Shown here: piece by piece, positions 27,549 through 47,182 of the stretch | Numbering within the stretch: position 1 is the first letter of the stretch | How the letters are laid out: the number at the start of each line of letters is the position of its first letter | NCBI GenBank assembly: GCA_034521595.1 | Contig: JAXHMG010000003.1 | Coordinates: 1,056,001 to 1,120,000 of the forward strand | DNA length: 64,000 nt | Direction: 5' to 3' | Source: Gemmatimonadota bacterium | GTDB lineage: Bacteria > Gemmatimonadota > Gemmatimonadetes > Longimicrobiales > Gaopeijiaceae | Position numbers and translations under genes: made by a program | The notes under the pieces: model-generated | Told to the model about the DNA's origin: nothing | The model's input: the letters and a program-made list of their open reading frames with translations, nothing else | The model's database searches: none

Positions 27549-27597
27549 CGTTGCCTGCTCCCGCGACGGAACACGGACCAGCGCCGCGGGCCGGTCC

Positions 27598-28899: not shown

Positions 28900-29641
28900 A
28901 GGAATACACGAGGGCGGCGAGGGCCAAGGCCGCCGAGGTGACGGCCAAGACCGTGGGCACGGGCGGGCCGAGCGCCACGAGGAGCGCGACGGTCTGGATG
29001 ACGCAGACGGCCTTGCGACGGACGCTCGGGGGAAGGGGAGCCTCGAGGTGGGGCAGGAGGCGTCCGGCCAGGACGAAGGCGTACCGGATGAGACCGATCC
29101 CGAGCACCCACGGCCCGATCGGGGTGCTCGTCCAAACAAGCGCCGACAAGGCGAGGATCAAGAACGCGTCGAGCTCCATGTCGAAGCGGGCGCCGAATGG
29201 GGTGTGGGTATCGGTGACGCGGGCGAGCCAACCGTCGACCCCGTCCAGAACCGAGGCAGCGGCACCGAGACCGATCACCCACCATGCCGCGGGGCCTTCC
29301 ACCATGCCGGGTACCAGGACCAGCGCGGCGACCGGTAGGGTGAGCGTGGCCCGGAAGAGGGTGACCCGGTTCGCCCATCCGATGCCAGGGCGGGGTAGGT
29401 GGACGGGGAGGAACGCGATCAAGAGGGTCGCGAGCACCCCGTATCCCCCGACCAGGACGACGGAGTACGCCGCCGGCAATCCCAGCGCGCTCCGCGTCAC
29501 GGTCCCGATCCCGAGCAGCGCGGCGAAGGCTACGAGGAGGTCGCCCGCCGCACGCCAGCGGACCGGCGCCCGGTGGGGCGGTGCGGCGGACGCTGTGTCG
29601 CCCTCCGGCGAATCGGTGAGGTTCCGGTGGGGGAGTGTCAA
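28811..29641 (-). CDS. CDP-alcohol phosphatidyltransferase family protein
   Basis: ANRVTLFR, LDGVDGWLAR...FGARFDMELD signature; start uncertain. Confidence 0.9.
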   Translation of the reverse strand: MTLPHRNLTDSPEGDTASAAPPHRAPVRWRAAGDLLVAFAALLGIGTVTRSALGLPAAYSVVLVGGYGVLATLLIAFLPVHLPRPGIGWANRVTLFRATLTLPVAALVLVPGMVEGPAAWWVIGLGAAASVLDGVDGWLARVTDTHTPFGARFDMELDAFLILALSALVWTSTPIGPWVLGIGLIRYAFVLAGRLLPHLEAPLPPSVRRKAVCVIQTVALLVALGPPVPTVLAVTSAALALAALVYSFTVDLRWLHRHRPSRRPTRDPTTGRHGSG

Positions 29642-29673
29642 CGGCGTGTCCGGCGGAAGGAGGTGAGGTCGAG

Positions 29674-30687
29674 ATGAGCGAACCGATACGCACCCGCGCG
29701 TTCTGGGTCCGCGCGCCCGGCCGTGGCGACATCGTGGAAGAGACGGTTCCCCCGCGGGGCGAGGACGAGGTCCTGGTCGAAGCTTCCTACTCGGGAGTCA
29801 GCCGCGGCACCGAAGCGCTGGTCTTTCGGGGCGAAGTGCCCGTCTCACAATACCAGGAAATGCGCGCGCCGTTTCAAGAAGGGGATTTCCCGGGCCCCGT
29901 GAAGTACGGGTACGGCAGCGTGGGCAGGGTGGTGGACACACCGGGCGAGCACGAAAGCCTTCTGGGCCGCTCCGTTTTCTGTCTGTTTCCGCACCAGGAT
30001 CGGTATGTCGTCCCCGTGACGGCGCTCACCCTGCTTCCCGACGGGGTTCCGGAGGGCCGCGGGGTGTTGGCGGCCAACATGGAGACCGCGATCAACGTGG
30101 TGTGGGACGCGGGCCTGAGCGTGGGGGACCGGGTCATCGTGCTCGGCGGCGGCGTGGTCGGCCTGCTCGTCACGTGGCTGGCGGCACGGGTGCCCGGGGT
30201 CGAGCTCCTCCTGGTGGATCCGAATCCGGCGCGTGCGGAGATCGCGAGGGCGTTCGGCGCGCGCTTTACCACGGAGGTGACTCGGGAAGAGCCGGCGGCC
30301 GACGTCGTGATCCACGCCAGCGGCGCGCCGGACGGTCTTCGCACGGCGCTGGGCTCGGCCGGCGTCGAAGCTCGGATCGTCGAGGCGAGCTGGTACGGGT
30401 CCCGAACCGTGCCGCTTCCACTCGGCGAGGCATTCCACTCCCGGCGCCTGACGCTCAGGAGCAGCCAGGTGGGCCGGATCCCACCGGATCGAGCCGCGCG
30501 GTGGACGCACCGCCGGCGCTTGGCGACGGCGGTGGCACTTCTGGACGATCCCGCTTTGGATCTCCTCATCAGCGGGGAGAGCCCGTTCGAGGACCTCCCC
30601 GGAGTGATGGCGACGCTGGCCGCCGAAGGAAGTGGCACACTGTGCCACCGGATCCGGTACCACGACGTGGAGCGCGAGTCGCGATAG
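29674..30687 (+). CDS. Zinc-binding (MDR family) alcohol dehydrogenase
   Basis: SGVSRGTE, PVKYGY, PHQD, GGGVVG Rossmann motif, ASWYG, FHSRRL.LRSSQV; GAGGTG RBS. Confidence 0.88.
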   Translation: MSEPIRTRAFWVRAPGRGDIVEETVPPRGEDEVLVEASYSGVSRGTEALVFRGEVPVSQYQEMRAPFQEGDFPGPVKYGYGSVGRVVDTPGEHESLLGRSVFCLFPHQDRYVVPVTALTLLPDGVPEGRGVLAANMETAINVVWDAGLSVGDRVIVLGGGVVGLLVTWLAARVPGVELLLVDPNPARAEIARAFGARFTTEVTREEPAADVVIHASGAPDGLRTALGSAGVEARIVEASWYGSRTVPLPLGEAFHSRRLTLRSSQVGRIPPDRAARWTHRRRLATAVALLDDPALDLLISGESPFEDLPGVMATLAAEGSGTLCHRIRYHDVERESR

Positions 30688-30727
30688 CCCGGCTCCACCC
30701 CTGATCTCCAACCTGCGAGCAACCCAC

Positions 30728-31126
30728 GTGTACAGTCTCACCGTTCGTGACCACTTCATGATCGCGCACAGCTTCCAGGGAGAGGTGTTCGGTCCCGCCC
30801 AGGGCCTGCACGGCGCCACGTACGTCGTGGACGCCACCTTTCGTCGCCAGGCGCTCGACGCCCACGGGCTGGTCGTGGACATCGGCCGGGCCCGGGACGT
30901 CCTGCGGGAGATCCTGGCCGAGCTCGACTACCGGAATCTCGACGAGATCGAGCGCTTCGAGGGACGGAACACCACGACCGAGTTCCTCGCCCGCGAGGTG
31001 TTCGACCGCATGGCGGACGGGCTCCGTAGCGGTCGGCTCGGGGACGGTGGCAAGGGGGTGGAGCGCGTGTGCGTGACGCTACACGAGTCTCACGTCGCCT
31101 GGGCCAGCTTCGAGGACGCCGTTTGA
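30728..31126 (+). CDS. 6-pyruvoyl-tetrahydropterin synthase/QueD-family homolog (PTPS-IV-like)
   Basis: DHFMIAHSF.GEVFGPAQ.LHGATY, LDYRNLD, NTTTEFLA, LHES; lacks the QueD C.xxHGH motif. Confidence 0.88.
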   Translation: MYSLTVRDHFMIAHSFQGEVFGPAQGLHGATYVVDATFRRQALDAHGLVVDIGRARDVLREILAELDYRNLDEIERFEGRNTTTEFLAREVFDRMADGLRSGRLGDGGKGVERVCVTLHESHVAWASFEDAV

Positions 31127-32235
31127 GCCGGAACGACCTCCACTTCGTCGTACCGGGATCGCTCGATCAGCGGACCGGCGGATATGTCTACGACGCGCGG
31201 ATGATCCGGGGCCTTCGGGATCGCGGGCGTTCGGTCAGGGTGCACGAGCTCGAAGGGGCGTTCCCGGAGGCGGACGGGACGGCACGCAGGAGCCTCGCGG
31301 ACACCCTCGAGAGCGTGCCTTCGGAAAGCGTCGTGATCGTGGATGGGCTGGCCGGAGGCGGGCTTCCGGAGGTGCTCGCCACGCACCGGGAGCGACTGAG
31401 AACCGTGGCGTTGGTCCACCACCCGCTGGCCGACGAAACGGGCTTGCCCGCTTCCGCGGCCGCGCGTCTGCAGGATTCCGAGCGCAGCGCCCTCGCGGCG
31501 TGCCGAGGGGTCGTGGTCACCAGCAGCTTCACCGCGCGACGACTCGAGGAGTACGAGGTGCCCCCGGACCGCATTCGGGTCGCGGTGCCCGGAACCGAGC
31601 CCGGAGCGACGGCGAGCGGTCCGGGAGCGGGCAAGCCCGCGCAGCTCGTGTGCGTGGCGTCGATCACCCCGCGCAAGGGACACCGGACGTTGGTGGACGC
31701 GCTCGCGAGGATTCGGGACTTGGAGTGGAGCTGTGTGTTGGCGGGAAGCGGGCGCCTGGCGCCGGATCATGCTCGAAGAGTCAGAGACCACGTCGAGGAC
31801 AACGGTCTCGCGGGCCGCGTCTCGTTCGTGGGCGAGTTGGGGCCCGAAGCCCTGGATGAGCTCTATCGGCGGAGCACGCTCTTCGTGCTCGCCTCCCACT
31901 ACGAGGGCTACGGCATGGCCCTGACCGAGGCCCTCGCGCGCGGGCTGCCCGTGGTCAGCACGACCGGAGGCGCCATCCCGTTCACCGTACCCGAAGACGC
32001 CGGAGTGCTCGTGCCCCCTGGCGACGCGAGCGCGCTCGGGCGTGCTCTGCGGTCGGTCCTGGCCGAGGATGGCGAGATGCTGCGGCGACTGAAGGCGGGC
32101 GCGATCCGGGCGGCGGGCACGCTCCCGGACTGGGCGCAAGCCGTGGTCGCGTTCGAAGGAGCGGTCGACACGCTCGCGAGGCTCGACCCGGGGTTCCGTC
32201 GTGTCTCCGCCAACTCGGGGTCCAGGACCACGTGA
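31123..32235 (+). CDS. Glycosyltransferase family 4
   Basis: TGGYVYD, VDGLA, LVHHPL, PRKGH, YEGYGMALTEALARGLPV; TTG start overlaps the PTPS stop. Confidence 0.9.
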   Translation: MSRNDLHFVVPGSLDQRTGGYVYDARMIRGLRDRGRSVRVHELEGAFPEADGTARRSLADTLESVPSESVVIVDGLAGGGLPEVLATHRERLRTVALVHHPLADETGLPASAAARLQDSERSALAACRGVVVTSSFTARRLEEYEVPPDRIRVAVPGTEPGATASGPGAGKPAQLVCVASITPRKGHRTLVDALARIRDLEWSCVLAGSGRLAPDHARRVRDHVEDNGLAGRVSFVGELGPEALDELYRRSTLFVLASHYEGYGMALTEALARGLPVVSTTGGAIPFTVPEDAGVLVPPGDASALGRALRSVLAEDGEMLRRLKAGAIRAAGTLPDWAQAVVAFEGAVDTLARLDPGFRRVSANSGSRTT

Positions 32236-33146
32236 GCAGCGAGGATTCGCGGGACGCGGACGACGGGTCGCTACCGGAGGGAAGCGCGTTCGAGGGAAGC
32301 TGGCTCGCGCTGCGAGAGGCAGTGGACCATCGCTCTCGCGCTCCTGAGCTGCTCCCGCCGCTCGTCCACACCTGGCGGCAGAGGGGGTGGTCCCGGATCG
32401 TGGACCTCGGATCCGGTGCGGGCTCCAACGTCCGTTATCTCGCGCCTCGGCTTCCTTCACCTCAGAGCTGGGTGCTCGTAGACCACGATCCGGACCTTCT
32501 CGAGGATGCGGCGCTGCCCCCTGAAGCGAGCGGTGCGGAGCGCGTGCGGGGAGATCTGGCGGACGAGGGCATCCGGGCGTTGCGCGATGTCGATTTCGTG
32601 ACCGGCGCGGCGTTGTTGGACCTCGTGTCCGAAGCGTGGCTTCGTCGGGTGGTGCAAGCTTGTGCGGAACGTGAGTGCGGCGCGCTGTTCACCACGATCT
32701 ACGACGGCACCATCGCATGGGCGCCCACGTCCGCGCAGGGTCGCGATGCGTCCACCCGTCCCGACGCGAATCGCGACCGCGCGGACGATGCGTTCATTCG
32801 CGGCCTGATCAACGCCCACCAGACCCGTGACAAAGGACTGGGGCCCGCTCTCGGGCCTCGCGCGGCCCTGGAGGCCCATGACCTCTTCGAAGCGGCCGGA
32901 TACCGTACGTGGCTCGTTCCGAGCCCGTGGCACCTCGGCGTGGAAGACCAGGAACTCGCCATGGCGTTGCTCGACGGATGGGCGGGGGCGGCCCTCGAGG
33001 AGCGTCCTGCGGCCGGCCACCGCACCCGACGCTGGGTGGAGCGAAGTCGCGCGCGCATCCGCGAAGGGCGTTGGGTACTCACCGTCGGGCACCTCGATGT
33101 CCTCGCTCTCCCGGGGTCGGCGTCTCCCACGACGAGCGGGATATGA
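32232..33146 (+). CDS. Class I SAM-dependent methyltransferase-like protein
   Basis: WLALREAVD, VDLGSGAGSN, LVDHD, ALLDLVS, NAHQ. Confidence 0.8.
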   Translation: MSSEDSRDADDGSLPEGSAFEGSWLALREAVDHRSRAPELLPPLVHTWRQRGWSRIVDLGSGAGSNVRYLAPRLPSPQSWVLVDHDPDLLEDAALPPEASGAERVRGDLADEGIRALRDVDFVTGAALLDLVSEAWLRRVVQACAERECGALFTTIYDGTIAWAPTSAQGRDASTRPDANRDRADDAFIRGLINAHQTRDKGLGPALGPRAALEAHDLFEAAGYRTWLVPSPWHLGVEDQELAMALLDGWAGAALEERPAAGHRTRRWVERSRARIREGRWVLTVGHLDVLALPGSASPTTSGI

Positions 33147-34108
33147 CCGGATGGTTGCGGATGCTGGCGGGCCCTGTCTTGCTGGCGGCCCTGGGCTACC
33201 TGGTCGACCTCGAGGCCATCGTCGCCCGCCTACGGACGCTGGAGCCCGGATGGGTCGTCGCAGCCGTCGCCCTGGGAGTCGTGCAGACGGTGGTGTCGGC
33301 CTGGCGCTGGCGATACACGGGAGCTCGTCTGGGAATCGACCTTCCGTTCCGCACGGCGCTCACGGAATACTACCTGGCGATATTCCTCAATCAGGTGCTC
33401 CCCGGCGGTGTGCTCGGTGACGCGAATCGGGCGTGGCGGCATGCGGGACGATCTCGAAGCGGGAACAGCTCGGCCGGCCCCGCCGTCCGGTCCGTGATCC
33501 TGGAGCGAGCCGCCGGCCAGCTCGTCATCTTCCTGCTGGCGTTCCTGTCAGCCGGCATCGTGGCCGCGCGGGTGAATCGACTGGGCCTTTGGGTCGGCAC
33601 GATAGCCGTGGGGCTCGTGGCCTTCGCCGTGGGAGCTCGGATGCTCGAGTGGAGCAGGCGAGCCACGTCCCCCCTGGGGCAGCTCGCCCGTGACGCTCGC
33701 ACGGCCGTGTTCTCTCGTGAAGCGTGGGGGGTTCAGCTCGGCACCTCGGCCCTCATCGTCATCTCCTACGTGTTGACCTACGTCTGCGCCGCGTGGGCGG
33801 TGGGCATCGACACTCCGTTCGCCGTGCTGGCACCGCTGGTCCCTCCCGTCCTGCTGGCGATGCTTCTCCCCCTGTCGGTCGCGGGGTGGGGCGTGCGCGA
33901 GGCGGCCGCCGCGAGTCTGTGGGGCGTCGTGGGGCTGAGCGTGGCGGACGGTGTGGCCATCTCGGTGGTGTATGGCCTCCTCGTCCTCGTCGGGACGGCC
34001 CCGGGAGCCGCGGTGCTCGCGCTGGGCGGGCGTTACGCCGCGCCGCGCGAGCCCGACACGCGCCGGAGATCCAGGTCGAAGAGCACGTCGTCGCCGAGCG
34101 TGAAGTGA
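33143..34108 (+). CDS. Lysylphosphatidylglycerol synthase TM-domain (flippase-like) protein
   Basis: SAWRW, FLNQVLPGGVLGDA, VILER, LPLSVAGWGVRE; about 8 TMs. Confidence 0.85.
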   Translation: MTGWLRMLAGPVLLAALGYLVDLEAIVARLRTLEPGWVVAAVALGVVQTVVSAWRWRYTGARLGIDLPFRTALTEYYLAIFLNQVLPGGVLGDANRAWRHAGRSRSGNSSAGPAVRSVILERAAGQLVIFLLAFLSAGIVAARVNRLGLWVGTIAVGLVAFAVGARMLEWSRRATSPLGQLARDARTAVFSREAWGVQLGTSALIVISYVLTYVCAAWAVGIDTPFAVLAPLVPPVLLAMLLPLSVAGWGVREAAAASLWGVVGLSVADGVAISVVYGLLVLVGTAPGAAVLALGGRYAAPREPDTRRRSRSKSTSSPSVK

Positions 34109-34908
34109 CGGCAGGCCGGACGGAGCGCGTCGGCCAGGGTGGCGACGGGCGCCAACGAGAGGCTCGGCCGACCCGACCCGATCACCATCGGGGCCACGGT
34201 CACGTGTAGCCGGTCGAGCGCTCGGGCGGCGAGGAAGTGGGAAACCGTGACGCCGCCCCCTTCCACTAGCACGCGCCGGCACCCGCGTGCCTCGAGCATC
34301 TCGAGGAGCCAGGAAGGAGCGATGACGCCCGGGTCCGGCTCTCGGGGAGCCATGATCTCGACGTGATCCGGCGTGGGACTTTCAGGCACGCCGTGTCGGA
34401 CCCACAGGGTCGGAGCCGCTCCGTCGCGGAACAGGTGTCCGCTCGGCTCGACGCGGCCGGCCGGGTCGAGCACGACGCGCAGTGGGTTCTCGCCGGGCGC
34501 CCGACGGGTCGTCAACCTCGGATCGTCGGACACGGCCGTGCCCGCGCCCACCACGACGGCATCCACGAGCGCTCGGAGGCGATGCAGCCTCTCGATATCC
34601 CCCGGCCCCGTGACATAGTGCGAATCCCCGGACTCGGTGGCGATCCGACCGTCGAGGCTCTGGCCGACCTGACCGACCACGATCCCCGGAGCCGCCGCGA
34701 TGGGGGCGAACAGGTCCAAGAGGTGGGTCGCCTCGGGGTCGGATGGCGCGGACGTCGTCCATGCTCCGGTGGGCTCCACCGTCAACGACGCGCCGTCGAC
34801 GGTCACTGTAGTGGCCTGACCGGAGCTTTCGGCGGAGACGGATGCGACCGCGTTCGCCGCGGCGCGCAAGAGGTCCCAAGCGCCCGTGGCGGTGATCCGC
34901 ACGCTCAT
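34033..34908 (-). CDS. RibD C-terminal (reductase-only) family protein
   Basis: QSLDGRIAT, DAVVVGAGT...DDPRLT, RVVLDP, LVEGGG, APMVIGSG; no deaminase Zn motif. Confidence 0.9.
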   Translation of the reverse strand: MSVRITATGAWDLLRAAANAVASVSAESSGQATTVTVDGASLTVEPTGAWTTSAPSDPEATHLLDLFAPIAAAPGIVVGQVGQSLDGRIATESGDSHYVTGPGDIERLHRLRALVDAVVVGAGTAVSDDPRLTTRRAPGENPLRVVLDPAGRVEPSGHLFRDGAAPTLWVRHGVPESPTPDHVEIMAPREPDPGVIAPSWLLEMLEARGCRRVLVEGGGVTVSHFLAARALDRLHVTVAPMVIGSGRPSLSLAPVATLADALRPACRHFTLGDDVLFDLDLRRVSGSRGAA

Positions 34909-35723
34909 GGAGCGTCCTCCAAGCGATCCACCGGGAACGCCCAGGTTTCCCGGACGATCGTCGCGAGGACCGCGGCATAGTGCTCGACCAGCTCGGCACC
35001 GATCGCCTCCGTCGCCAGGCGGGCGTCACCCGTCACCCCGTGCGGGTTCAGGTCTCCCGCCAGCCACGAGAAGGGAGCCACGCCCTCCGGGCTCACCCAC
35101 CGCAAGGTGCTCGCCAACTCCTCTCCGAGCGTGGAGAACCGGGCGATGTGCTCGGCCCGGACGAGGTCGGGACGGAGGTGCAGGAGCATGGAGGTCTCGA
35201 CGGCCCCGCCGTGTAGCCCGTGCACCCATTCCTCGTCGGGAAGCTCCGTCGAGGTCGGACGGGGGAAGCGGAACGAATGGGCCTTCACCACCAGGAGGCC
35301 GTGCTCCGTCCGAAGGCGCAGACCCACGTCGTCGACGACGTGGGCGTTCCCGCCGTGCGTGTTGAAGAGAACCAGCCTGCGGAATCCCTGGCGGGCCAGT
35401 GCCGCTCCTTGCTGTAGGAGGATCTCCGCGAGCGTGTCCGCGGCGAGGGACAGGGTGCCGGCGAACCGGTCGTGCTCGAGGCTGGCGCCGCTCGAGAGCT
35501 CGGGCAGCAGCACGACCGGTACGTCGTCGGGAACGGCTTCGAGCGCTCGGCTGGCGAGTCCACGGGCGATGACGAGGTCGGTGGAGACCGGTAGGTGCGG
35601 CCCGTGCTGCTCGATCGCTCCAAGCGGGAGCACCGCGACCGGGTCCCGTGCCGCCAGAGCGGACAGCTCCGGGGCGCTCTGCTCTTCCCACCGCCACGTG
35701 GAGGGGGTCGGCTCGTCGGGCAT
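34905..35723 (-). CDS. Creatininase family amidohydrolase
   Basis: LPLGAIEQHGPHLP..TD, SLEH..FAGT, NTHGGN, HGGAVETS. Confidence 0.92.
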   Translation of the reverse strand: MPDEPTPSTWRWEEQSAPELSALAARDPVAVLPLGAIEQHGPHLPVSTDLVIARGLASRALEAVPDDVPVVLLPELSSGASLEHDRFAGTLSLAADTLAEILLQQGAALARQGFRRLVLFNTHGGNAHVVDDVGLRLRTEHGLLVVKAHSFRFPRPTSTELPDEEWVHGLHGGAVETSMLLHLRPDLVRAEHIARFSTLGEELASTLRWVSPEGVAPFSWLAGDLNPHGVTGDARLATEAIGAELVEHYAAVLATIVRETWAFPVDRLEDAP

Positions 35724-36496
35724 CAGCGCTCCTCTGAAGGGAAGGGGGCTTCGTGCGTCCCTGTATCGATTTTTGCGTAGACGTCTCCGAAGGCTAGGCC
35801 GTCCGCTCCGGCGTCGAGCCAGGCGCGCAGCTCCACCGCTCCCAGCCAGGGTCGAAAGCGGAACCGTCGCTCCTCACGGGCGACCGCGTTGAACCGGTAC
35901 GGTCCCAGCGCGTCCAGGTGATCCACACAGGCACGGGCGATGTCCAGCCCCCCCTGAACGAACTCGAAGGAAATCCCGGCGATCGGGTGGGTGAGTCCGG
36001 CCAACGCCTCCGCTTCGTGCCCTTCGATGTCCAGCTTGCAAAAGGTCGGAAGGCCGAAGCGGGCCACTAGGGCGTCGAGAGTGGTCAGGGGGACCGCCAC
36101 TTCGTCCTCCCACCGCACGCCGTCGAAACCCAGGTTGCGCTCCATCATCCTCCTCCGCCAGCCGGATGAGAGCGTGGAGACCGTCGGCGTGCGTCGGCTC
36201 ACGGCCAGCGAAGCGGTCCCCACCTCCGCACCTACCGCTTCTTCGAGCACGACGACTCCCTTCTTTCGGCCGGCGATGCGGCGGAGCCACCGTGCGACAC
36301 CGGGTTGCGGCTCGAGAGCGACCACCCGCGCGCCGAGGGAGGCGAAGGCCACCGTCCGATCCCCCAAGTGCGCGCCGACGTCGAAAACCAGGCTTCCGGG
36401 CTCCACGAACGGCGCGTAGAGGGAGCGCAGGCCCCGTTGGCGTCCGGGCCGCCAGTAGACCGCGAACGAGCGCAGCAGCCCGAGGAGCTCATCCAC
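35723..36496 (-). CDS. FkbM family methyltransferase
   Basis: FDVGAHLG, ALEPQP, TLDAL, KLDIEGHE; GTG 36496 overlaps the upstream stop. Confidence 0.88.
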   Translation of the reverse strand: MDELLGLLRSFAVYWRPGRQRGLRSLYAPFVEPGSLVFDVGAHLGDRTVAFASLGARVVALEPQPGVARWLRRIAGRKKGVVVLEEAVGAEVGTASLAVSRRTPTVSTLSSGWRRRMMERNLGFDGVRWEDEVAVPLTTLDALVARFGLPTFCKLDIEGHEAEALAGLTHPIAGISFEFVQGGLDIARACVDHLDALGPYRFNAVAREERRFRFRPWLGAVELRAWLDAGADGLAFGDVYAKIDTGTHEAPFPSEER

Positions 36497-38195
36497 CGGT
36501 GCCCGCCGCACGGCTCGACCGCTCCTCGCTGAATGCCCGGATGAACCAGGTGCGGAACCGGTCCATCCCTTTCGGCTCTCCGTCCACATCCGGGAACGGT
36601 CCGGTCTCGAAGCCCCACTGCAGGAAAGGATCGAGAAGCTCTCGCGCACCGGTGATCACGTGGACGGGAACGGTTCTCGGCGCGTCCTCTCCGGTGATGA
36701 GCGGGGCGGGTTGATGGTCTCCGAGAAGGATCAGCAGCGCGTCCGAGCCGATGAAGCGCTCCGCGTAGCTGGCCGCCGTATGGACGGCATAGTCGATGGA
36801 CAACGCATAGTGCTCACGAACCCGTTCGGTGTCGCGCCAGAGCTCTTCAGGACGCTCTCCGGCCTCCCGCCACTCCTCGAACACGGACCCGTCACCGATC
36901 TCGTTCCAGGCCTCGAGAACCGGTAGGATGGGAGTCCACGGCGCGTGGCTGCTGATCAGACCGATCTCCGCGAAGAGCGGCCGTTCTTCAGGGGTCGCGC
37001 GGCGGACGGAGCGCTCGACGAAGGACCAAGTGTACTGATCCGGCATCGTCACCCAGTTCAGTGGCGGGCCTCGGTAGCCCATATCCTCGAAGGTGTAGAT
37101 GGCGTCGTATCCGAACTGGAACCCTTCGGGCCAGGCGAGGGTGATCGCGGGCATGACCGCGGCCGTCCTGTATCCGGCGGCTTCGAAGTCATCGATGAGG
37201 GTCGGGCGTGTGCTGGCCAGGAGGAGATCGTACCGCATCTGATTGTGGAGCCAGAGGCCGCTGAGCATCGAACCATGCCCCAACCAGGACTGTCCGCCCT
37301 GGCTCGGTGCGACCAGTCGTCCGGTCGCGAGGTGGAGGCCCGCGGCCTCGAGGCGCGATCCCATCTCCTTCAAACGGGGGCGGATCGTCGGAGCGTAGCG
37401 CGGATCTTCCAGCGCGGTCATGCCGTACGACTCGACGAACGCGAGAAGCACGTCCCGTCCCCCCAGCCGTCCGAGGAGTCCGGGCGTGCCGGAGAGATCG
37501 GCGGGACGTGCCGCGAGCTCGGCCGCGAACGCGTCGCGCTCTTCCAGGAGGCCTGCGGCGAAGCGTGCCTGCTCGGCGGCGAGACGGGCCCCCGGGAAGC
37601 CGAGAGCCCGGCTCCACCCCTCGTCCGCCCGCATGCCGACGAGGATGCCGGACGCCACGAGGACCGTGAGGCCCATGCTCCGGTAGGACCTCAGGACGGG
37701 ACGCACCCGGCGCGGGGGCGCCAGAAGGTGTCCGAGGAGGGCCACGACCGCCAATGGCAGGAGGATCGCGGCCGTGCGAACGACCGTGGCCATCGCCGGG
37801 CCCATGGTGCCCGTCAGTAGGTCGGACACGGCGCTGAGCAGGCGGATATCCAAGTAGATGTTGAGCGGGCGCGAAAGGCTCATGCGGGCGGACGCATCTC
37901 CGAGTCCGACCAATCCCATGGCCACGACGATCAAAGCCGCGAGGAGCGCCAGGGCCACGGACCACGGCCGCCGCGGCAGGGCCGCGAAGACGAGCGTGAG
38001 AACGACGGCTTCCCCGGCCACCCAGTGGAAGGGGACCATCCCCGGAGCGGCCCATTGGGGCGCCAGGAGGATCCCATTGACAAGGACGAAGGCCAGGATG
38101 AGGCTCAACCACCTTCCGGGGGCCGTTGAGGGCCACGACGCGAGCGCCTTTGCGACCGAGCGCATCCCGGTGTCGGTTGCCGGATCGGATGTCAT
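36489..38195 (-). CDS. Membrane-anchored sulfatase-like / LTA-synthase-like (alkaline phosphatase superfamily) transferase
   Basis: About 5 N-terminal TMs then VESYG, GQSWLGH, SSHAPW, GDHQP metal-site motifs. Confidence 0.8.
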   Translation of the reverse strand: MTSDPATDTGMRSVAKALASWPSTAPGRWLSLILAFVLVNGILLAPQWAAPGMVPFHWVAGEAVVLTLVFAALPRRPWSVALALLAALIVVAMGLVGLGDASARMSLSRPLNIYLDIRLLSAVSDLLTGTMGPAMATVVRTAAILLPLAVVALLGHLLAPPRRVRPVLRSYRSMGLTVLVASGILVGMRADEGWSRALGFPGARLAAEQARFAAGLLEERDAFAAELAARPADLSGTPGLLGRLGGRDVLLAFVESYGMTALEDPRYAPTIRPRLKEMGSRLEAAGLHLATGRLVAPSQGGQSWLGHGSMLSGLWLHNQMRYDLLLASTRPTLIDDFEAAGYRTAAVMPAITLAWPEGFQFGYDAIYTFEDMGYRGPPLNWVTMPDQYTWSFVERSVRRATPEERPLFAEIGLISSHAPWTPILPVLEAWNEIGDGSVFEEWREAGERPEELWRDTERVREHYALSIDYAVHTAASYAERFIGSDALLILLGDHQPAPLITGEDAPRTVPVHVITGARELLDPFLQWGFETGPFPDVDGEPKGMDRFRTWFIRAFSEERSSRAAGTGG

Positions 38196-38231
38196 GTTCG
38201 GATGTGCCGGTCCACGGAGCTGAAGGGAATC

Positions 38232-39869
38232 ATGTCATTTCGCCTGCTTGCCGCTTTCCTCGCGCTCGTGCTGCTCGTCTGGTGGTTCACGACCGGTCCC
38301 ACTCTACCGTCACTGGTACCCGGAACCAACCCGGGCGAGCACACGCCCCCACCGGACACCGCGAGCCCGGCCGAGACGGTCTGGCAACCGCGCCCCGAAA
38401 CGTTGACCGAGGATCTGGCGCGCCACGCCCGTGCCCTCTCCGAAAGGGCGTACGTGGCACCGTCCTGGAACGTTCCGGACAGGCTCGCGGAGTTGGACTT
38501 CGACGGGTACCGCTCCATCCGCTTCCGGCCCGCCGCTTCCGTCTGGCGTGACGAAGGCATGTTCGAAGTTCAACTCTTCCACCTCGGCGGTGCCTACGAC
38601 ACACCCGTGTCCATCCACTTCGTCGAAGGTGACTCCATACGGGAGCAACGCTACGATCCCGCGCTCTTCTCGTTCGAGGGAGCCGCGTCGGAGGTCGGTG
38701 ACCTGCCGAGCGGCTCGGTCCCGGCGTTCGCCGGGTTCCGCGTTCACTACCCGCTCAACGCGCCCGAACGGAGCGACGAGGTCGCGGCGTTCCTCGGCGC
38801 CTCGTACTTCCGGATCCTCGGCGCGGGACACCAATACGGGCTCTCCGCGCGCGGCCTGGCCATCGATCCCGCCACGGACGGGCCCGAGGAGTTCCCGGAT
38901 TTCAAGGCGTTCTGGATCACGCGGCCCGAGGACGGATCCCGAACCTTGACGGTCCACGCTCTCCTCGACGGGCCGTCGGTCGTGGGGGCCTATCGGTTCG
39001 AGCTTCGGCCCGGTGCCTCGACGGAGCTCATGGTCGACGCTCACCTGTTCGGGAGGCGCGACGTCTCCAAGCTCGGCGTGGCTCCCTTGAGTAGCATGTT
39101 CCTGCACGCGCCCGGGCACGGTCCCCGGCACGACGACTTCCGCCCCCGTGTGCACGATTCCGACGGCCTGCAGATGCTCACGGGCCGCGGGGAGTGGATC
39201 TGGAGGCCACTTTCGAACGGGCCCGGTTTCCACGTGACGTCCCTCCGGGACGAAGATCCGTCGGGGTTCGGCCTGTTCCAGCGCGCGCGGGACTTCGAGG
39301 ACTACTTGGATCTGGAAGCCCGGTACGACCGCCGTCCGAGCTACTGGGTGGAAGTGATCGATGGGGACTGGGGCACCGGAGGGGTGGAGCTCATGGAGAT
39401 CCCCACGCCCTCCGAGTTCAACGACAACATCGCTGCCTACTGGGTGCCGGACCGACCGCTCGCCGCGGGCGAGGAGCGTAGGTACGCGTATCGGTTGAGC
39501 ACCCATGACGCTCGTCCGCCGGAGCTCGATCTCGCGCACGTGGAGCGCACGGCGGTGGGACGGGACGCCCTGCCGGGGGAAGGCGAGCCTTCCCCTCCGG
39601 GCCACCGGCGTTTCGTGGTGGATTTCGTGGGCGGTGTCCTCACGGACCTCGGGGAGGAGGACGATGTACGACCGGATCTCTCGCTGCTCAGGGGGAGCGC
39701 GGAGGGGGTCACGGTACAGCCCTTGCCGGGTAACACGGGGCGGCGGGTGACCTTCACCTTGATCCCCGACGGCGACGAGCCGGCGGACATGCGTCTGCGT
39801 CTGCTCCTCGATGACCGCTCGGTGAGCGAGACTTGGAGCTATGTTTGGTATCCTCGAGACATGAACTGA
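38232..39869 (+). CDS. mdoG: Periplasmic glucan biosynthesis protein OpgG/OpgD family
   Basis: YRSIRFRP, FAGFRVH, FLGASYFR, YGLSARGLAID, EEFPDF, DFRPRVHDSDGL, DNIAAYW, SETWSY. Confidence 0.92.
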   Translation: MSFRLLAAFLALVLLVWWFTTGPTLPSLVPGTNPGEHTPPPDTASPAETVWQPRPETLTEDLARHARALSERAYVAPSWNVPDRLAELDFDGYRSIRFRPAASVWRDEGMFEVQLFHLGGAYDTPVSIHFVEGDSIREQRYDPALFSFEGAASEVGDLPSGSVPAFAGFRVHYPLNAPERSDEVAAFLGASYFRILGAGHQYGLSARGLAIDPATDGPEEFPDFKAFWITRPEDGSRTLTVHALLDGPSVVGAYRFELRPGASTELMVDAHLFGRRDVSKLGVAPLSSMFLHAPGHGPRHDDFRPRVHDSDGLQMLTGRGEWIWRPLSNGPGFHVTSLRDEDPSGFGLFQRARDFEDYLDLEARYDRRPSYWVEVIDGDWGTGGVELMEIPTPSEFNDNIAAYWVPDRPLAAGEERRYAYRLSTHDARPPELDLAHVERTAVGRDALPGEGEPSPPGHRRFVVDFVGGVLTDLGEEDDVRPDLSLLRGSAEGVTVQPLPGNTGRRVTFTLIPDGDEPADMRLRLLLDDRSVSETWSYVWYPRDMN

Positions 39870-39871
39870 GC

Positions 39872-42808
39872 TTGAGCGCACCCTCCCAGACCACACCACC
39901 TCCAGTCTCGAGCGCATCGATCTTCGATGCGCCGGGCCTCGGGCTCCGTCGCACCCTCTTCGCCTTTCTCGTCGCCGGAACGACCGTCTACGGCGTATCC
40001 ATGATGGCGAGCATCGTGGGCGCGGGCGGAACCACGCTGCTCGAGGTGGCGATCCTGGTCCTTTTCGCGCCGACGTTCGGCTGGATCTCCATTGCCTTCT
40101 GGAACGCGATCCTGGGGTTCGTCCTCCAGGCGTGGAATCGGGACCCGCTTACGCTACGGCCGATGGGATCGCGGGCGCGTACCCTCGCCGATGTGCCGAT
40201 CACCACGCGCACCGCGCTGGTCGTTCCCAGCCGGAACGAGGACGTGAGCGCCGTGGTCGAGCGGATCCGCTGGATGTTGGATTCGCTGGAGGAAACGGGC
40301 ATGGCGGGTGTGTTCGACGTGCACCTTTTGAGCGATGCCGACGACCCCGGATTGATCGACGTCGAGGAGCGGGAGTGGAGCGAGCTCCGGGAAGAGTACG
40401 GTGGCTCATCCGGCCTTCACTATCGACGTCGCTCGTCGAACCAAGGGCGCAAGGCGGGCAACATCGCCGAGTTCTGCGAGCGATGCGGGGACGACTACGC
40501 GTATTTCGTGGTCTTGGACGCGGACTCCGTGATGCGGGGGGATACGCTCGTCCACCTCGTCCGGGGCATGGAAGCGGATCCGAGCGTGGGCCTCCTCCAG
40601 ACGGTCCCGCTTCCTCGGCGCCAGGAAACCCGCTTCGGCCGATTCGTGGAGTTCGCGTCGACCCTCTACGGCCCGATGCTGGCCACCGGACAGAGCTTCT
40701 GGCAGGGGGACGCAGCGAATTACTGGGGGCACAACGCGATCGTGCGCATGGATCCGTTTCGGCGGCACGGTCGTCTGCCCGTCCTTCCCGGGTCGCCCCC
40801 GCTCGGTGGTGAGATCCTCTCCCACGACTTCGTGGAAGCCGCGCTCCTGCGTCGTGCCGGCTGGAGCGCGTACCTCCTCCCGGACGTGAAGGGAAGCTGG
40901 GAGGACGTGCCGAGCAACCTGCTCGACTTCGCGCGCCGTGACCGCCGTTGGGCTCAGGGGAGCCTCCAACACCTCAGGCTGATGGGCCTCGCGGGCCTCC
41001 ATCCCCTCAGCCGCCTCCACTTCTTGCTGGGGGCCATGGGTTACGTGTCCTCGTTGCTCTGGCTCCTCCTTCTCCTCGCCAGCACGATCTACGTGGCGGA
41101 GTGGCAGGGAATCGGGGGCATCGTGGTCCTCGATAGCCCCACGCCGGGTCCGGGGGCGGCGGGCCGACCGGTCCCCTCGCTTCTCGGGATTACCGCAGGA
41201 CTCTTGTTCATTCCGAAGATGTTGGGAGTCGGTCTCGCCTTCCGGGACCGGATCCCGTTCGCCAACAGAGGAAGGTTGGCCGTTCGTGCCTCGTCGGAAG
41301 CCGCGTTCGCCGTCCTGGTGGCGCCGATCATGATGCTCGTCCACGCTTGGTGTGTCACCAGCATCGTGGCTGGGCGGTCCGTGGCCTGGGGGAGCCAGCT
41401 GCGGGACGGTCGGATCGTTTCCTGGTCCGAAGCGACCCGGCGGGTCGGCTGGGTGACCGCGGTGGGGGTGGCCTGGGGCGCCTACACGCTTTTCCTGAGC
41501 CCGTTGTTCTTCGCCTGGCTTTCCCCGATCTTCGCCGGGTTGCTGGTCGCCGTGCCGACGGTACGATGGACCTCGGACCCTCGGCACGGCGTTGTTGCTT
41601 CCGGTCGTGACGACGGCCGGCGCTCACGATCCGGTCCGCCCGGAGCCGCCGATGGGCAGGAAGGTGCCGTGAACAATATGCACGAAGCCGAGCGGAGTCT
41701 CTTCGAGCTGAGGCGGCACAGAGCGGTTTACGTCGAGAGCGCGCAGGGTCCCGACGGCACCGCGGGCGTCGATCTCCTCGTCGCGTCGGCGGAAGGGATC
41801 GACGATGGAGTTCTGGCGATGCTTCGCGAATATAGTGCGGGCCCGCTTCACCTTCTCATCACGCCGTACCGCGCTCGCGCGATGGGGATCGAGGCAGGAT
41901 CCGCTCCGTTGGCACTCGAGCTACCCCAGCGCATGGGGCCGTCCGAAATCCTCCGCCTGAGCAGCACACCGCGGCCGATGCCGTCGGTCAAGCTCGCCTC
42001 ACGCCCGCTGACCGACGCCGAGGAGGTCAGCCTCTCCTTGGCACGGTTGGGGCACCTGCTACCTGCCGTGGTGAGCGCCACCGTGCCACCCGACGTACCC
42101 ACCGGTCTCGGGCAGCGGCTGGCCTCCGGGCAGGTATTGCGAGCGCACGCGAGTCGCATACGAGCGGCCTTCGCCACGCCGCGGCTCTCGGTCACGCGAG
42201 TGAGCGCGGCGGCGGTGCCCCTGCAAGACACCGAAGACGCGGAATTCATCCTGTTTCGGGAGGAACACGGCTTCCTGGAGCACGTCGCCATCCTGATCGG
42301 CTCCCGGGAGCGATGGCCGGATCCTCTTCCGGTGCGGCTCCATTCCGCGTGCCTCACGGGCGATCTCTTCGGAAGCTTGAAATGCGACTGCGGTGAGCAG
42401 CTCCACGGAAGCCTACGCCATTTTCGGGAGCGAGGCGGGGGTGTGTTGCTGTACCTGCAACAGGAGGGCCGGGGCATCGGGCTGGGGAACAAGCTCCGGG
42501 CGTACGCTCTCCAGGAAGGTGGGCTCGATACCGTGGACGCGGATTGCGCCCTCGGATTCGGGCCGGACGAGCGGAGCTACGACGCGGCCGTCGATATGCT
42601 GAGGCACCTCGGGATCGAGCGTGTCCAACTGCTCACGAACAACCCGGAAAAGCTGAGAGCACTCGAGAGCGCGGGAGTGAAGGTGCTCGACCGAATGCCC
42701 CTCCACGGAACGTTGAATCGCCACAATCTCCCCTACGTGAAAGCGAAAGTGCAACGTGCGGGCCACTGGCTCGGCGACATGTTGTCGGAGGCTTCCGAGC
42801 GACCGTGA
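39872..42808 (+). CDS. mdoH: OpgH (glucan glucosyltransferase) fused in frame to GTP cyclohydrolase II
   Basis: OpgH motifs RKAGNI, LDADS, YWGHNAI, LSHDFVEA, RDRRWAQG in the first ~580 aa; no stop before the RibA motifs. Confidence 0.85.
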   Translation: MSAPSQTTPPPVSSASIFDAPGLGLRRTLFAFLVAGTTVYGVSMMASIVGAGGTTLLEVAILVLFAPTFGWISIAFWNAILGFVLQAWNRDPLTLRPMGSRARTLADVPITTRTALVVPSRNEDVSAVVERIRWMLDSLEETGMAGVFDVHLLSDADDPGLIDVEEREWSELREEYGGSSGLHYRRRSSNQGRKAGNIAEFCERCGDDYAYFVVLDADSVMRGDTLVHLVRGMEADPSVGLLQTVPLPRRQETRFGRFVEFASTLYGPMLATGQSFWQGDAANYWGHNAIVRMDPFRRHGRLPVLPGSPPLGGEILSHDFVEAALLRRAGWSAYLLPDVKGSWEDVPSNLLDFARRDRRWAQGSLQHLRLMGLAGLHPLSRLHFLLGAMGYVSSLLWLLLLLASTIYVAEWQGIGGIVVLDSPTPGPGAAGRPVPSLLGITAGLLFIPKMLGVGLAFRDRIPFANRGRLAVRASSEAAFAVLVAPIMMLVHAWCVTSIVAGRSVAWGSQLRDGRIVSWSEATRRVGWVTAVGVAWGAYTLFLSPLFFAWLSPIFAGLLVAVPTVRWTSDPRHGVVASGRDDGRRSRSGPPGAADGQEGAVNNMHEAERSLFELRRHRAVYVESAQGPDGTAGVDLLVASAEGIDDGVLAMLREYSAGPLHLLITPYRARAMGIEAGSAPLALELPQRMGPSEILRLSSTPRPMPSVKLASRPLTDAEEVSLSLARLGHLLPAVVSATVPPDVPTGLGQRLASGQVLRAHASRIRAAFATPRLSVTRVSAAAVPLQDTEDAEFILFREEHGFLEHVAILIGSRERWPDPLPVRLHSACLTGDLFGSLKCDCGEQLHGSLRHFRERGGGVLLYLQQEGRGIGLGNKLRAYALQEGGLDTVDADCALGFGPDERSYDAAVDMLRHLGIERVQLLTNNPEKLRALESAGVKVLDRMPLHGTLNRHNLPYVKAKVQRAGHWLGDMLSEASERP
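41669..42808 (+). CDS. ribA: GTP cyclohydrolase II moiety (possible internal start)
   Basis: VRLHSACLTGDLFGSLKCDCG, QEGRGIGL.NKLRAY, LLTNNP.K; AGGAAGG upstream of in-frame GTG 41669 / ATG 41678; N-terminal degenerate RibB-like region. Confidence 0.8.
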   Translation: MNNMHEAERSLFELRRHRAVYVESAQGPDGTAGVDLLVASAEGIDDGVLAMLREYSAGPLHLLITPYRARAMGIEAGSAPLALELPQRMGPSEILRLSSTPRPMPSVKLASRPLTDAEEVSLSLARLGHLLPAVVSATVPPDVPTGLGQRLASGQVLRAHASRIRAAFATPRLSVTRVSAAAVPLQDTEDAEFILFREEHGFLEHVAILIGSRERWPDPLPVRLHSACLTGDLFGSLKCDCGEQLHGSLRHFRERGGGVLLYLQQEGRGIGLGNKLRAYALQEGGLDTVDADCALGFGPDERSYDAAVDMLRHLGIERVQLLTNNPEKLRALESAGVKVLDRMPLHGTLNRHNLPYVKAKVQRAGHWLGDMLSEASERP

Positions 42809-43380
42809 AGGGGTCGTCGGATTACAGGGGACATCCCTGCGGCGCTTGTCGGAGCGTCGGGACGGGACGCGCGGCGATCCTCCTCGCGCTGTTGGGGACG
42901 GTCGCGTGCGAGCCGGTGCCCGAGGTGGCCCGAGATCCCGATCCGCTCCTCCAAACGTCGGAGCTCCGATACCGGATCGAGCGGCACGACATCGGCTACT
43001 CCACGCAGGTCGTCTACACGTTCCGGAACGACACGGGCGCGGACGTCCATCTCGAGAATTGCGACGGTGACATACGTCCGTTGCTCCAGGTGCGACGCGA
43101 GGGCCGCTGGGTTGATGCTTGGCGCCCGCTGATGCGGGAGTGCGCGAGTGAGCCCGTGGTGATCGAGAGGGGAGCCCGCCTCACCGACACGCTCGAGGTC
43201 GTGGGGGCCCCGCCCGAATCGAACGTCTCTCCGAGCTTCGTGTTCGAGGACGTTGAAGGTGTCTATCGATTGTATTGGTTCCAATCCCGGCTCGTCCCCG
43301 AGGGTGAAAGCGGGGGCGACGCCTCCGATCCCGGGATCCCGTGGCGGACGTCGAACCCGTTCGCCCTCGCGTTTCCCTGA
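42805..43380 (+). CDS. Hypothetical lipoprotein
   Basis: LLALLGTVAC lipobox; beta-rich domain; GTG overlaps the ribA stop. Confidence 0.6.
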   Translation: MKGSSDYRGHPCGACRSVGTGRAAILLALLGTVACEPVPEVARDPDPLLQTSELRYRIERHDIGYSTQVVYTFRNDTGADVHLENCDGDIRPLLQVRREGRWVDAWRPLMRECASEPVVIERGARLTDTLEVVGAPPESNVSPSFVFEDVEGVYRLYWFQSRLVPEGESGGDASDPGIPWRTSNPFALAFP

Positions 43381-43403
43381 CCGCCCGTGCTGGAGGATGC
43401 TCG

Positions 43404-43619
43404 ATGCCACCCAGCCGCTATGTTTCCGCGGATCGTCTCCTGCGCATGCTGGCGTACATCGCCGTGGCCGTGGTCGTGTTGGTGGCGGCCGATGCGGTGT
43501 TCCGTGTCTTCGGGTCGCCCCAGGCGGTGCGTCGCACCTTCGCGGTGATCTGGATCGTGGCCCTCCCGTTGGGAGGATGGTGGCTCTGGCGGCGCACGGC
43601 CCGCGATTCCGGCCATTGA
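43404..43619 (+). CDS. Small two-TM membrane protein
   Basis: GGAGG RBS, ATG 43404, two hydrophobic helices. Confidence 0.55.
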   Translation: MPPSRYVSADRLLRMLAYIAVAVVVLVAADAVFRVFGSPQAVRRTFAVIWIVALPLGGWWLWRRTARDSGH

Positions 43620-43709
43620 CCCTTCGGCCCGGTGGGGCCAGCTTCTCCAAAGCGAGTCGGCACCCGACGCGAGGCGCGGCCCCGATGGATTCCGGGCGCC
43701 GCGTTTTTT
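43616..43709 (+). promoter_or_regulatory. thrS promoter and leader with terminator-like hairpin
   Basis: TTGACC-N17-CAGCTT (43616-43644); GC hairpin 43674-43703 followed by T6. Confidence 0.5.
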
Positions 43710-43745
43710 GATGTCAGTCGGTGGAACTCTCAGGACCCACGAGCC

Positions 43746-45671: not shown

Positions 45672-45764
45672 CCGAGGGCGGTCCCCGGAGCTCCCGGAGA
45701 ACGACGGAGCGTGCCGTTGACCGGGATGAGCGCATCGCCCATCTTCTCCGAGGAGAAAATCAGC

Positions 45765-45902
45765 AAGCAGGTCGGCTCGGCCGCCGTCCTCACCCTCGGG
45801 CTCCACGGAGCCGACTCGGGGGTCGCGCTTTCATCGGGTGTGCCTCAGGGCGGACCCGGAACGGCTAGTGCGACCCGGGTTCCGAGAGCTCGGGTCTTTT
45901 TT
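45765..45902 (+). promoter_or_regulatory. Putative L20 leader (ribosomal protein autoregulatory RNA) with intrinsic terminator
   Basis: AAGCAG...CCTCACC start as recalled for L20 leaders; hairpin GACCCGGGTT/AGCTCGGGTC plus T6; directly upstream of infC-rpmI-rplT; promoter TTGACC-N17-CATCTT at 45717-45745. Confidence 0.65.
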
Positions 45903-45965
45903 GTCGTTCGTGATCAGGTGTCATGGTGACGCCCGACACAGGACACCATCGGAGGGTTAGGGGAA

Positions 45966-46484: not shown

Positions 46485-46532
46485 AGAACCGGGTCCTGCG
46501 GGCTCGGCCCAAAGGAACAACGGAGAGACTGA

Positions 46533-46733
46533 ATGCCGAAGATGAAGACGCACCGAGGTGCGGCCAAGCGCGTCAAGAAGACGGGCACGGGTAAGCTCAA
46601 GCGCATGCGCGCGAACAAGAGCCATATCCTGACCAAGAAGACGCGGAAGCGGAAGCGCCGCCTTCGGCGGTCCGATCTGGTGGCCTCCTCCGACGCGAAG
46701 AAGCTGAAGCGAATCCTACCCTACGGCGCCTGA
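46533..46733 (+). CDS. rpmI: 50S ribosomal protein L35
   Basis: [13 protein letters not shown]...HILTKK. Confidence 0.97.
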
Positions 46734-46745
46734 GGAGGAGTCCCC

Positions 46746-47114: not shown

Positions 47115-47147
47115 GCCGGACGTTCCGATCCGAGGGTCCACACCTGG

Positions 47148-47182
47148 TAGGGGCCTCGCGGCATCGAGCCGCGGGGCCCTTC
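47148..47182 (+). terminator. Stem-loop after rplT
   Basis: AGGGGCCTCGCGGC / GCCGCGGGGCCCCT hairpin; weak U-tract. Confidence 0.5.

Follow-up and report, generated by a model that had tools for sequence, protein, structure and literature searches.

The 64,000-nucleotide (nt) stretch of a Gemmatimonadota genome analyzed here (positions 1,056,001 to 1,120,000 of contig JAXHMG010000003.1, assembly GCA_034521595.1; hereafter the window, whose coordinates are used throughout) encodes a protein in which OpgH/MdoH, the glucosyltransferase of periplasmic β-glucan synthesis, is joined in one frame to a RibBA-like GTP cyclohydrolase II (GCH II) module. Judged from sequence comparisons, this fusion is genuine and not an artifact. 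It is conserved, its GCH II domain is intact and is not the housekeeping copy, the module is a member of a PTPS-IV gene cluster, and it is linked to opgGH; about these points we have next to no doubt. The protein is an undescribed domain architecture of two textbook enzymes, no description of OpgH and a GTP cyclohydrolase II in one polypeptide having been found in open-access PMC papers or bioRxiv preprints, and it offers a concrete lead for a known orphan gene cluster. We lean toward the view that it is a bifunctional inner-membrane protein whose GCH II domain starts an orphan pathway to a GTP-derived compound tied to glucan synthesis. The fused gene, its parts, and the gene directly upstream are as follows.

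38202..39869 (+): opgG (MdoG), directly upstream of the fused gene (PF04349, E 3.7e-172)
39872..42808 (+): fused gene, OpgH, linker, and RibBA-like GCH II module (978 amino acids [aa] from TTG 39872)
39935..41596 (+): OpgH/MdoH part, GT2 glucosyltransferase with flanking hydrophobic helices (NF003958, Pfam GT2, hydropathy)
41576..41677 (+): linker of 34 residues (569-602), DPRHGVV...GAVNN (translation)
41678..41680 (+): in-frame ATG, homolog of the start codon of stand-alone RibA-like genes (AGGAAGG 13 nt upstream)
41678..42200 (+): degenerate DHBP-synthase (RibB)-fold N-domain of the module (AlphaFold2 model, Foldseek)
42206..42700 (+): GCH II catalytic domain (PF00925, 177.7 bits; alignment to 2bz0; Foldseek)

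A single frame encodes both enzymes

The program-made list of open reading frames (ORFs) gives one ORF at 39833..42808 (+), of 991 aa if started at TTG 39833. An in-frame TTG at 39872, 2 nt past the opgG stop codon (TGA, 39867-39869), yields the 978-aa form to which the residue numbers here refer; either of the two may serve as the start. Pfam places GT2 families on residues 117-407 and GTP_cyclohydro2 (PF00925) on residues 779-943, the latter with 177.7 bits against a cutoff of 23.3. The NCBIfam MdoH equivalog NF003958 (668.8 bits; cutoff 419) aligns residues 22-575 with profile positions 16-576 of 704, and NCBIfam RibA models match residues 605-967, the RibA subfamily model NF001591 passing its cutoff with 218.9 against 148 bits. 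Because both halves score well beyond curated cutoffs, a chance match is excluded, and the one uninterrupted OpgH-linker-RibA frame that a first-pass annotation had read from the letters is upheld by Pfam and NCBIfam on both sides of the junction. The OpgH translation contains a DAD motif (VLDADS) and RDRRWAQG, and a hydropathy scan shows hydrophobic peaks on both sides of the GT2 core; DxD and RxRW-type motifs together with flanking transmembrane helices are what we take to be the family-defining features of OpgH/MdoH. With its GT2 core and helices, its passing NF003958 score, and opgG directly upstream, the system resembles the OpgH/MdoH and OpgG pair of the Escherichia coli type, from which the protein differs in having a 376-residue C-terminal RibBA-like module and a decayed tail motif.

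The fusion is conserved

A collection of 5.8 billion proteins, with clusters defined at 90% identity, was searched with the C-terminal 439 residues of the protein, only proteins of 537-1712 aa being considered. Among the matches listed, PF00925 and a GT2 family (PF13632) occur together in 100 of 120 clusters. These fused clusters are 43-83% identical to the query (the GCH II half) and 651-1067 aa long and, where named, are called MdoH or membrane glycosyltransferase and come from Gemmatimonadota or Longimicrobiales metagenome-assembled genomes (MAGs). Since public records call the fused proteins plain MdoH, their GCH II half is hidden by annotation. In a 50%-identity library, only one representative matches over the full length, a fused protein of 1007 aa (1101.6 bits); the others are OpgH alone or the RibA-like part alone. 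At the DNA level, 13 distinct genomic loci encode OpgH and the RibA-like part without a break in the frame. A 10,685-base contig from sequencing run X1, which may be the source sample, covers positions 41000-42400 with one substitution and no gap; by itself, it supports the fusion weakly. Run X3, from another study, contains parts of the OpgH end only, at 95-99% or lower likeness, and ends short of the junction.

The first-pass annotation had hesitated between a genuine fusion and a deletion or sequence error that had removed the opgH stop codon, and it had proposed that domain architectures, relatives, and reads be inspected. These inspections decide for the former: the fusion is present in many genomes, two genomes of the same genus have an in-frame linker, and the junction is intact in the X1 contig, whereas an error or deletion is refuted by the conservation of the fusion across independent assemblies.

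The junction and an internal start codon

As had also been proposed, OpgH lacks its usual C-terminal tail and ends at VRWTS: positions 577-704 of the NF003958 profile find no match in the fused protein. In more distant fused relatives, VRWTS is followed by an RRxGLLxVPSE-type motif and then by a variable linker; the linkers of fused relatives outside the genus are variable in sequence and roughly 40-100 residues long, with a GLLxVPSE-type motif present. Within the window's genus, the tail motif is reduced to a remnant (RHGVVASG; RTGVLLSG in a relative), and the linkers of G439 and G471 (same genus, 63-69% identity) are exactly 34 residues long and in frame.

The ribosome-binding-site-like AGGAAGG that had been noticed ahead of in-frame GTG 41669 and ATG 41678 is indeed present, at 41658-41664. 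All 13 distinct fused loci have ATG at the codon equivalent to ATG 41678, in spite of an unconserved linker around it, and many stand-alone genes have an in-frame stop 0-10 codons ahead of it. A strict Shine-Dalgarno-like motif lies ahead of this ATG in 3 of the 13 fused loci and, among 68 stand-alone loci that lack opgH in the vicinity, in only 7, which speaks neither for nor against an internal start. Synthesis of a separate RibA-like protein from ATG 41678 is possible; the retention of the codon fits ongoing use as an internal start and, equally, plain inheritance.

A frameshift reading of the junction was considered and dropped. Over the linker, the +1 frame runs RTLGTALLLPVV...KVP up to a TGA (41670-41672) that overlaps GTG 41669, an arrangement that looked like a lost tail followed by a coupled start. 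Because frame 0 is conserved to VRWTS in all relatives, with the RxGxLL remnant legible in it, and because the two same-genus genomes have 34-codon in-frame linkers, we regard the GTGA overlap as a coincidence.

The module is RibBA shaped, with an intact GCH II domain

The AlphaFold2 model of the 376-residue half (pLDDT 91.4) is matched by Foldseek over its whole length to Mycobacterium tuberculosis RibBA (4i14; E 1.7e-18) and further to E. coli GCH II (2bz0; TM score 0.91, root mean square deviation 2.0 Å). RibB structures match residues ~1-175 of this half (E ~1e-6, 10-16% identity, TM score by target 0.53-0.63). This N-domain has no Pfam hit at E<=1, PF00926 included. An hhalign comparison with the RibB domain of the genome's own RibBA gave a collinear but weak alignment (probability 24.8%, E 7.8e-4), in which the acidic active-site loop is not conserved, the RENEGD of RibBA lying opposite a variable, gapped segment.

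The zinc ligands that had been reported as intact are so: the cysteine codons of the HSAC-x10-CDC motif (TGC at 42350-42352, 42383-42385, and 42389-42391) are read in frame and align with Cys54, Cys65, and Cys67 of E. coli RibA (2bz0). The equivalents of Tyr105 and Arg128 are likewise kept, and all five columns are invariant in 37 of 37 aligned homologs, one row (L113) having been left out for an in-frame stop inside its match. The roles of these five residues in GCH II were reportedly described by Ren et al. in 2005. As modeled, the module is RibBA shaped, combining a dead RibB-fold domain with a live-looking GCH II domain, and is predicted to catalyze the GCH II reaction, the conversion of GTP to a diaminopyrimidine nucleotide, formate, and pyrophosphate. 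It is like RibBA (M. tuberculosis Rv1415, the protein of 4i14) in domain order, whole-length fold, and GCH II residues but unlike it in that the N-domain has no RibB sequence signature and the module exists as a second copy beside a true RibBA.

That canonical RibBA is encoded elsewhere in the same genome as one 414-aa frame (PF00926, 301.5 bits; PF00925, 257.7 bits, versus 182.5 bits for the fused module in the same genome comparison), so the fused module is a second copy and not the sole GCH II. When the 376-residue half was searched in 401 genomes of the phylum (4 of them, G097, G182, G057, and G157, unpublished; no particular claim depends on these 4), 371 gave a match, mostly to the catalytic part only (RibBA type), and 18 had the full-length paralog, 17 of them from the window's family and 1 from another. 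One genome of the family, G299, has two copies of the paralog (C15:950275-951366 and C5:21564-22667).

The module is a member of an orphan PTPS-IV cluster

A scan with the N-domain alignment, using one genome per species, yielded 126 relatives, of which 80 loci were kept. As labeled, 46 are from Acidobacteriota (Vicinamibacterales and relatives), 31 from Gemmatimonadota, and 3 from Gammaproteobacteria. In tblastn searches with the window's neighboring genes, 78 of the 80 contained further genes of the set, which spans 28814-42808 in the window; the exceptions are two Ectothiorhodospiraceae loci. The neighbors are listed below as open frames, with the number of the 80 loci in which each is present at >=40% query coverage, many misses being at contig ends.

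28814..29797 (-): CDP-alcohol phosphatidyltransferase (PF01066, E 1.8e-15); 58 loci
29620..30684 (+): MDR/zinc-type dehydrogenase-like protein (ADH_zinc_N 27.1 bits, BchC-like 55.9 bits, both below cutoff); 60 loci
30608..31123 (+): PTPS-IV-type T-fold protein with FGPAQ signature (3d7j, E 3e-49); 60 loci, the loci having been retrieved via the GCH II N-domain
31030..32232 (+): GT4 glycosyltransferase (PF00534, E 6.5e-30); 64 loci
32232..33146 (+): conserved 304-aa protein, weakly methyltransferase-like (Methyltransf_25, E 5.6e-5, below cutoff); 67 loci
32882..34105 (+): flippase-like membrane protein, LPG_synthase_TM (PF03706, E 4.9e-40; TIGR00374, 32.3 bits versus a cutoff of 43.2); 40 loci
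34036..35025 (-): RibD_C-type pyrimidine reductase without a deaminase domain (PF01872, E 8e-38); 70 loci
34908..35873 (-): creatininase-family hydrolase (PF02633, E 3.1e-64); 69 loci
35726..36655 (-): FkbM-family methyltransferase (family searches); 64 loci
36492..38234 (-): membrane-anchored alkaline-phosphatase-superfamily transferase of the LtaS/EptA/GacH fold, 581 aa, divergent from opgG, start not set; 65 loci

The RibA-like gene usually lies between the divergent RibD_C and creatininase genes. In the fused loci, these two genes are now neighbors, and the RibA-like gene stands behind opgH. The match of the PTPS-like protein at E 3e-49 is to Streptomyces coelicolor SCO6650, an uncharacterized protein of known structure (PDB 3d7j), and its FGPAQ motif is given as the PTPS-IV signature in an excerpt of PMC5445326. 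An excerpt of a review (PMC5041015) claims a role for PTPS-IV in F420 synthesis on the basis of unpublished work. The neighborhood resembles the SCO6650-SCO6655 type in having an SCO6650-like PTPS with FGPAQ clustered with a GCH II paralog; it differs in that the window's cluster adds an LtaS/EptA-fold transferase and opgGH and in that the GCH II is fused to OpgH. In the open-access literature, we found no published product of a PTPS-IV/SCO6650-type cluster and no paper combining its enzymes or naming SCO6650. According to an excerpt of PMC9478397, the creatininase-family proteins BrbF and ArfB deformylate the GCH intermediate in riboflavin synthesis; the window's hydrolase is like them in belonging to PF02633 and in having a GCH and a pyrimidine reductase as gene neighbors, the arrangement of the modular pathway described there. 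The gene content suggests that the cluster encodes an orphan GTP-derived pathway, the compound probably being reduced, methylated, and glycosylated.

Several loci show further features. A cytochrome b561 gene, absent from the window, lies inside the cluster of several Gemmatimonadota relatives (L034:7777-8373, L035:10611-11225, and L036), and two loci have Fe-S and molybdopterin oxidoreductase genes on the flanks of the cluster. The RibA-like match of the Ectothiorhodospiraceae MAG locus L113 (10001-11119) contains an in-frame stop, and no other cluster genes occur within 10 kb of it or of the match in L095. Locus L044, labeled as a gammaproteobacterial MAG, holds the whole cluster and unfused opgGH; its RibA-like protein groups with that of a Gemmatimonadota genome (support 93), and misbinning or gene transfer is possible. 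In the window, an open frame at 42544-43380 (+) overlaps the 3' end of the fused gene; its later part is small-lipoprotein-like (…AAILLALLGTVAC…), and it has no Pfam hit. By tblastn, 3 of the 80 loci have a relative of it immediately behind the RibA-like gene (>=40% coverage).

Linkage to opgGH and evolution of the fusion

Of the 101 genomes sampled from the window's family, 26 were found to contain OpgH, and every one of these carries the RibA-like paralog. The two genes stand to each other as follows.

Fused in one frame (n=10): G000, G439, G471, G405, G430, G423, G415, G402, G285, G321
Directly adjacent, not in one frame (n=3): G466, G345, G375
On the same contig, ~4-6.5 kb apart (n=11): G221, G363, G326, G328, G421, G419, G435, G455, G433, G438, G422
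On different short contigs (n=2): G404, G468

In those of the 80 loci that hold opgG, the gene for the 581-aa protein divergently adjoins it. This distribution suggests that, in this Gemmatimonadota family, opgGH is an accessory to the cluster. The RibA-like proteins were placed on a quick tree with SH-aLRT support (89 distinct sequences; 8 duplicate rows and rows of <330 aa, here L021, excluded), which unites the 46 acidobacterial rows in one clade (support 100). Two of the fused rows are unresolved; the others fall into two groups, one with 7 rows (support 98) and the other, to which the window belongs, with 3 (support 96). Four changes of the fused label are needed on this tree, of which the well-supported branches force only one; the fusion may have arisen once or several times, the well-supported branches being compatible with a single origin.

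The LtaS/EptA-fold neighbor and other fusions of the module

The AlphaFold2 model of the 581-aa protein (pLDDT 87.9) has helices over residues 2-200 and an alpha/beta domain over residues 219-525. Foldseek places LtaP best (E 8.7e-10), followed by MCR-1, EptA/EptC, LtaS, and GacH, down to ~1e-5. Residues E226, S274, D464, and H465 are invariant in its alignment and are candidates for metal ligands and the Ser/Thr nucleophile. The nearest clusters of this protein in the Atlas are sulfatase-like and, by structure, include some automatically named "MdoB-like," certain of which also have a CDP-alcohol phosphatidyltransferase domain. Enzymes of the LtaS/EptA type take the phospho-head group of a membrane phospholipid and attach it to a glycan outside the cytoplasm, as OpgB does for the periplasmic glucans of E. 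coli. The protein is like OpgB (MdoB), LtaS, EptA, MCR-1, and GacH in combining a helical bundle with an alkaline-phosphatase-type domain, and its gene adjoins opgG.

OpgH is not the only partner of the module. At least five proteins (P0105, P0107, P0108, P0111, and P0117) combine, in this order, a CDP-alcohol phosphatidyltransferase, a weak DHBP-synthase-like stretch, and GCH II in one polypeptide. From these sequences, the module is fused at least twice to the C terminus of a membrane enzyme of its own cluster. The same module is also found fused to GTP cyclohydrolase I (P0106 and P0113; C-terminal) and to a YkuD L,D-transpeptidase domain (P0118).

Proposed role and its alternatives

In the bifunctional protein that we favor, the OpgH part would polymerize glucose from UDP-glucose into periplasmic β-glucan together with OpgG, and the GCH II domain, on the cytoplasmic side, would initiate, by opening GTP at the membrane, a pathway that proceeds via the diaminopyrimidine nucleotide. 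The reductase, PTPS-IV, dehydrogenase, methyltransferases, and GT4 would then tailor the GTP-derived product. That the module acts as the entry enzyme of the cluster's pathway is likely. Further downstream, the CDP-alcohol phosphatidyltransferase may turn the GTP-derived compound into a phospholipid head group, the flippase-like protein may flip that lipid across the membrane, and the LtaS/EptA-fold enzyme may transfer the head group to an extracytoplasmic acceptor, here most likely the OpgGH glucan. This glucan decoration step is doubtful, and a specific version of it, in which a ribitylaminopyrimidine- or pterin-like head group is placed on the OpgGH β-glucan and the fusion forms the core of a membrane metabolon, is improbable on present evidence. 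The fusion itself might have arisen by relocation of the GCH II gene, from its usual place between the genes for the reductase and the creatininase-family hydrolase to the opgH 3' end, with loss of the stop codon; it would tether the first enzyme of the pathway to the glucan synthase and ensure that the two are coexpressed. The first-pass suggestion that GTP ring opening is linked to glucan synthesis thus stands insofar as opgGH and an orphan GTP-derived cluster are associated in genomes, while functional coupling goes beyond that.

If this specific version of the decoration step is true, it would define a new class of periplasmic-glucan substituent and a coupling of glucan synthesis to head-group supply. 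The fusion serves as a Rosetta-stone clue to where the product of the orphan cluster may go, and it narrows the question about that cluster to whether it makes an unusual phospholipid and whether the head group of this lipid is placed on periplasmic glucans.

A number of results weigh against the proposal or parts of it. A search for OpgH found none in any of 5 Vicinamibacterales genomes that carry the cluster, nor in the 97% complete G299, though the paralog is present there; since the cluster occurs without OpgH, the glucan cannot be its general acceptor. Because only 10 of the 26 OpgH-positive family genomes have the fusion, it must be dispensable for the pathway. In a crude hydropathy scan, the GT2 domain is followed by five peaks, which, taken literally, would put the C terminus outside the cell; both ends of E. 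coli OpgH are cytoplasmic. The module misses the equivalog cutoff of NCBIfam PRK08815 (GTP cyclohydrolase II RibA, 376 aa), from which it differs with 312.9-315.3 versus 464 bits, and the RibD_C reductase stays below that of TIGR01508 (archaeal reductase; 107.6 versus 186 bits). The creatininase-family hydrolase is under all NCBIfam equivalog cutoffs, scoring higher with MftE (125.7) than with ArfB (18.8 versus 180), and is unlike BrbF/ArfB in this respect and in that its partner GCH II keeps the Tyr105 equivalent. S. coelicolor SCO6655 reportedly makes a formylated intermediate; set against this precedent, the invariant Tyr105 equivalent predicts complete deformylation by the GCH II itself and leaves the role of the creatininase-family protein open. 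The 581-aa protein scores 17.8 bits with Pfam Sulfatase (PF00884; cutoff 25), its structural matches have TM scores of only 0.3-0.6, and it differs from its proposed counterparts OpgB, LtaS, EptA/MCR-1, and GacH in having only 9-16% identity. Neither a single-sequence nor a profile search of the PDB gave a hit for it, and a PDB sequence search with OpgH gave none either. No RNA sequencing runs containing the stretch were found.

An alternative of lower, if appreciable, probability is that the fusion is real and means nothing mechanistically: operon neighbors lost a stop codon, the domains work independently, and the arrangement is kept because it is harmless. The coexistence of fused, adjacent, and separated states within one family (10, 3, and 11 of 26), a linker that varies in sequence and length (34 residues within the genus of the window, ~40-100 in the other relatives inspected), and the ancestral ATG kept at all 13 distinct fused loci, from which a separate RibA-like protein might still form, would all accord with this. 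Yet ~100 clusters (90% identity level), as distant as 43% identity, retain the fused state, which also extends over at least two well-supported clades, and the independent fusion of the module to a second membrane enzyme of the cluster argues for useful tethering. An artifact of assembly or sequencing, or a stop codon lost recently in this genome only, has a negligible chance of being the explanation. Its sole basis is run X2, from the same sample as X1, in which one 459-base contig (depth 3.86) has a 1-base deletion at 41523; this rests on a single contig of depth <5, is taken as an error because it would wreck the conserved last OpgH helix (SPIFxGLLxAxPxVRWTS), and is countered by the presence of the fusion in many independent assemblies.

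The remaining alternatives accept the fusion and assign its GCH II half another role. E. coli OpgH is a nutrient-dependent regulator acting through its cytoplasmic part, and the N-domain of the module is catalytically dead; it might therefore be proposed that the module is a GTP-binding sensor that regulates OpgH by nucleotide or energy state and has no biosynthetic function. We consider this very unlikely, given that the catalytic residues are invariant in all 37 homologs and that stand-alone orthologs occur in the same biosynthetic cluster of genomes where OpgH was not found. Scarcely any probability attaches to the notion that the module is the cell's riboflavin GCH II in membrane-tethered form: its GCH II residues are intact and it passes NF001591, but the canonical RibBA of the same genome scores higher (257.7 versus 182.5 bits), the paralog is present in 18 of the 401 phylum genomes as opposed to RibBA-type matches in 371, and its neighbors are PTPS-IV cluster genes and not ribH or ribE.

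Other features of the window

Just upstream of the cluster, at 27529-28896 (+), the window encodes a protein with Lnb_N and 5TMH_Lnb domains, which was found in 0 of the 80 related loci. Long antisense frames face opgG (38310-39917 (-), 535 aa), opgH (40406-41587 (-), 393 aa), and thrS (43263-45806 (-), 847 aa); they are typical shadow ORFs of high-GC DNA, not genes. Downstream of the cluster, 43632-48340 (+) holds the housekeeping genes thrS, infC, rplT, and pheS.

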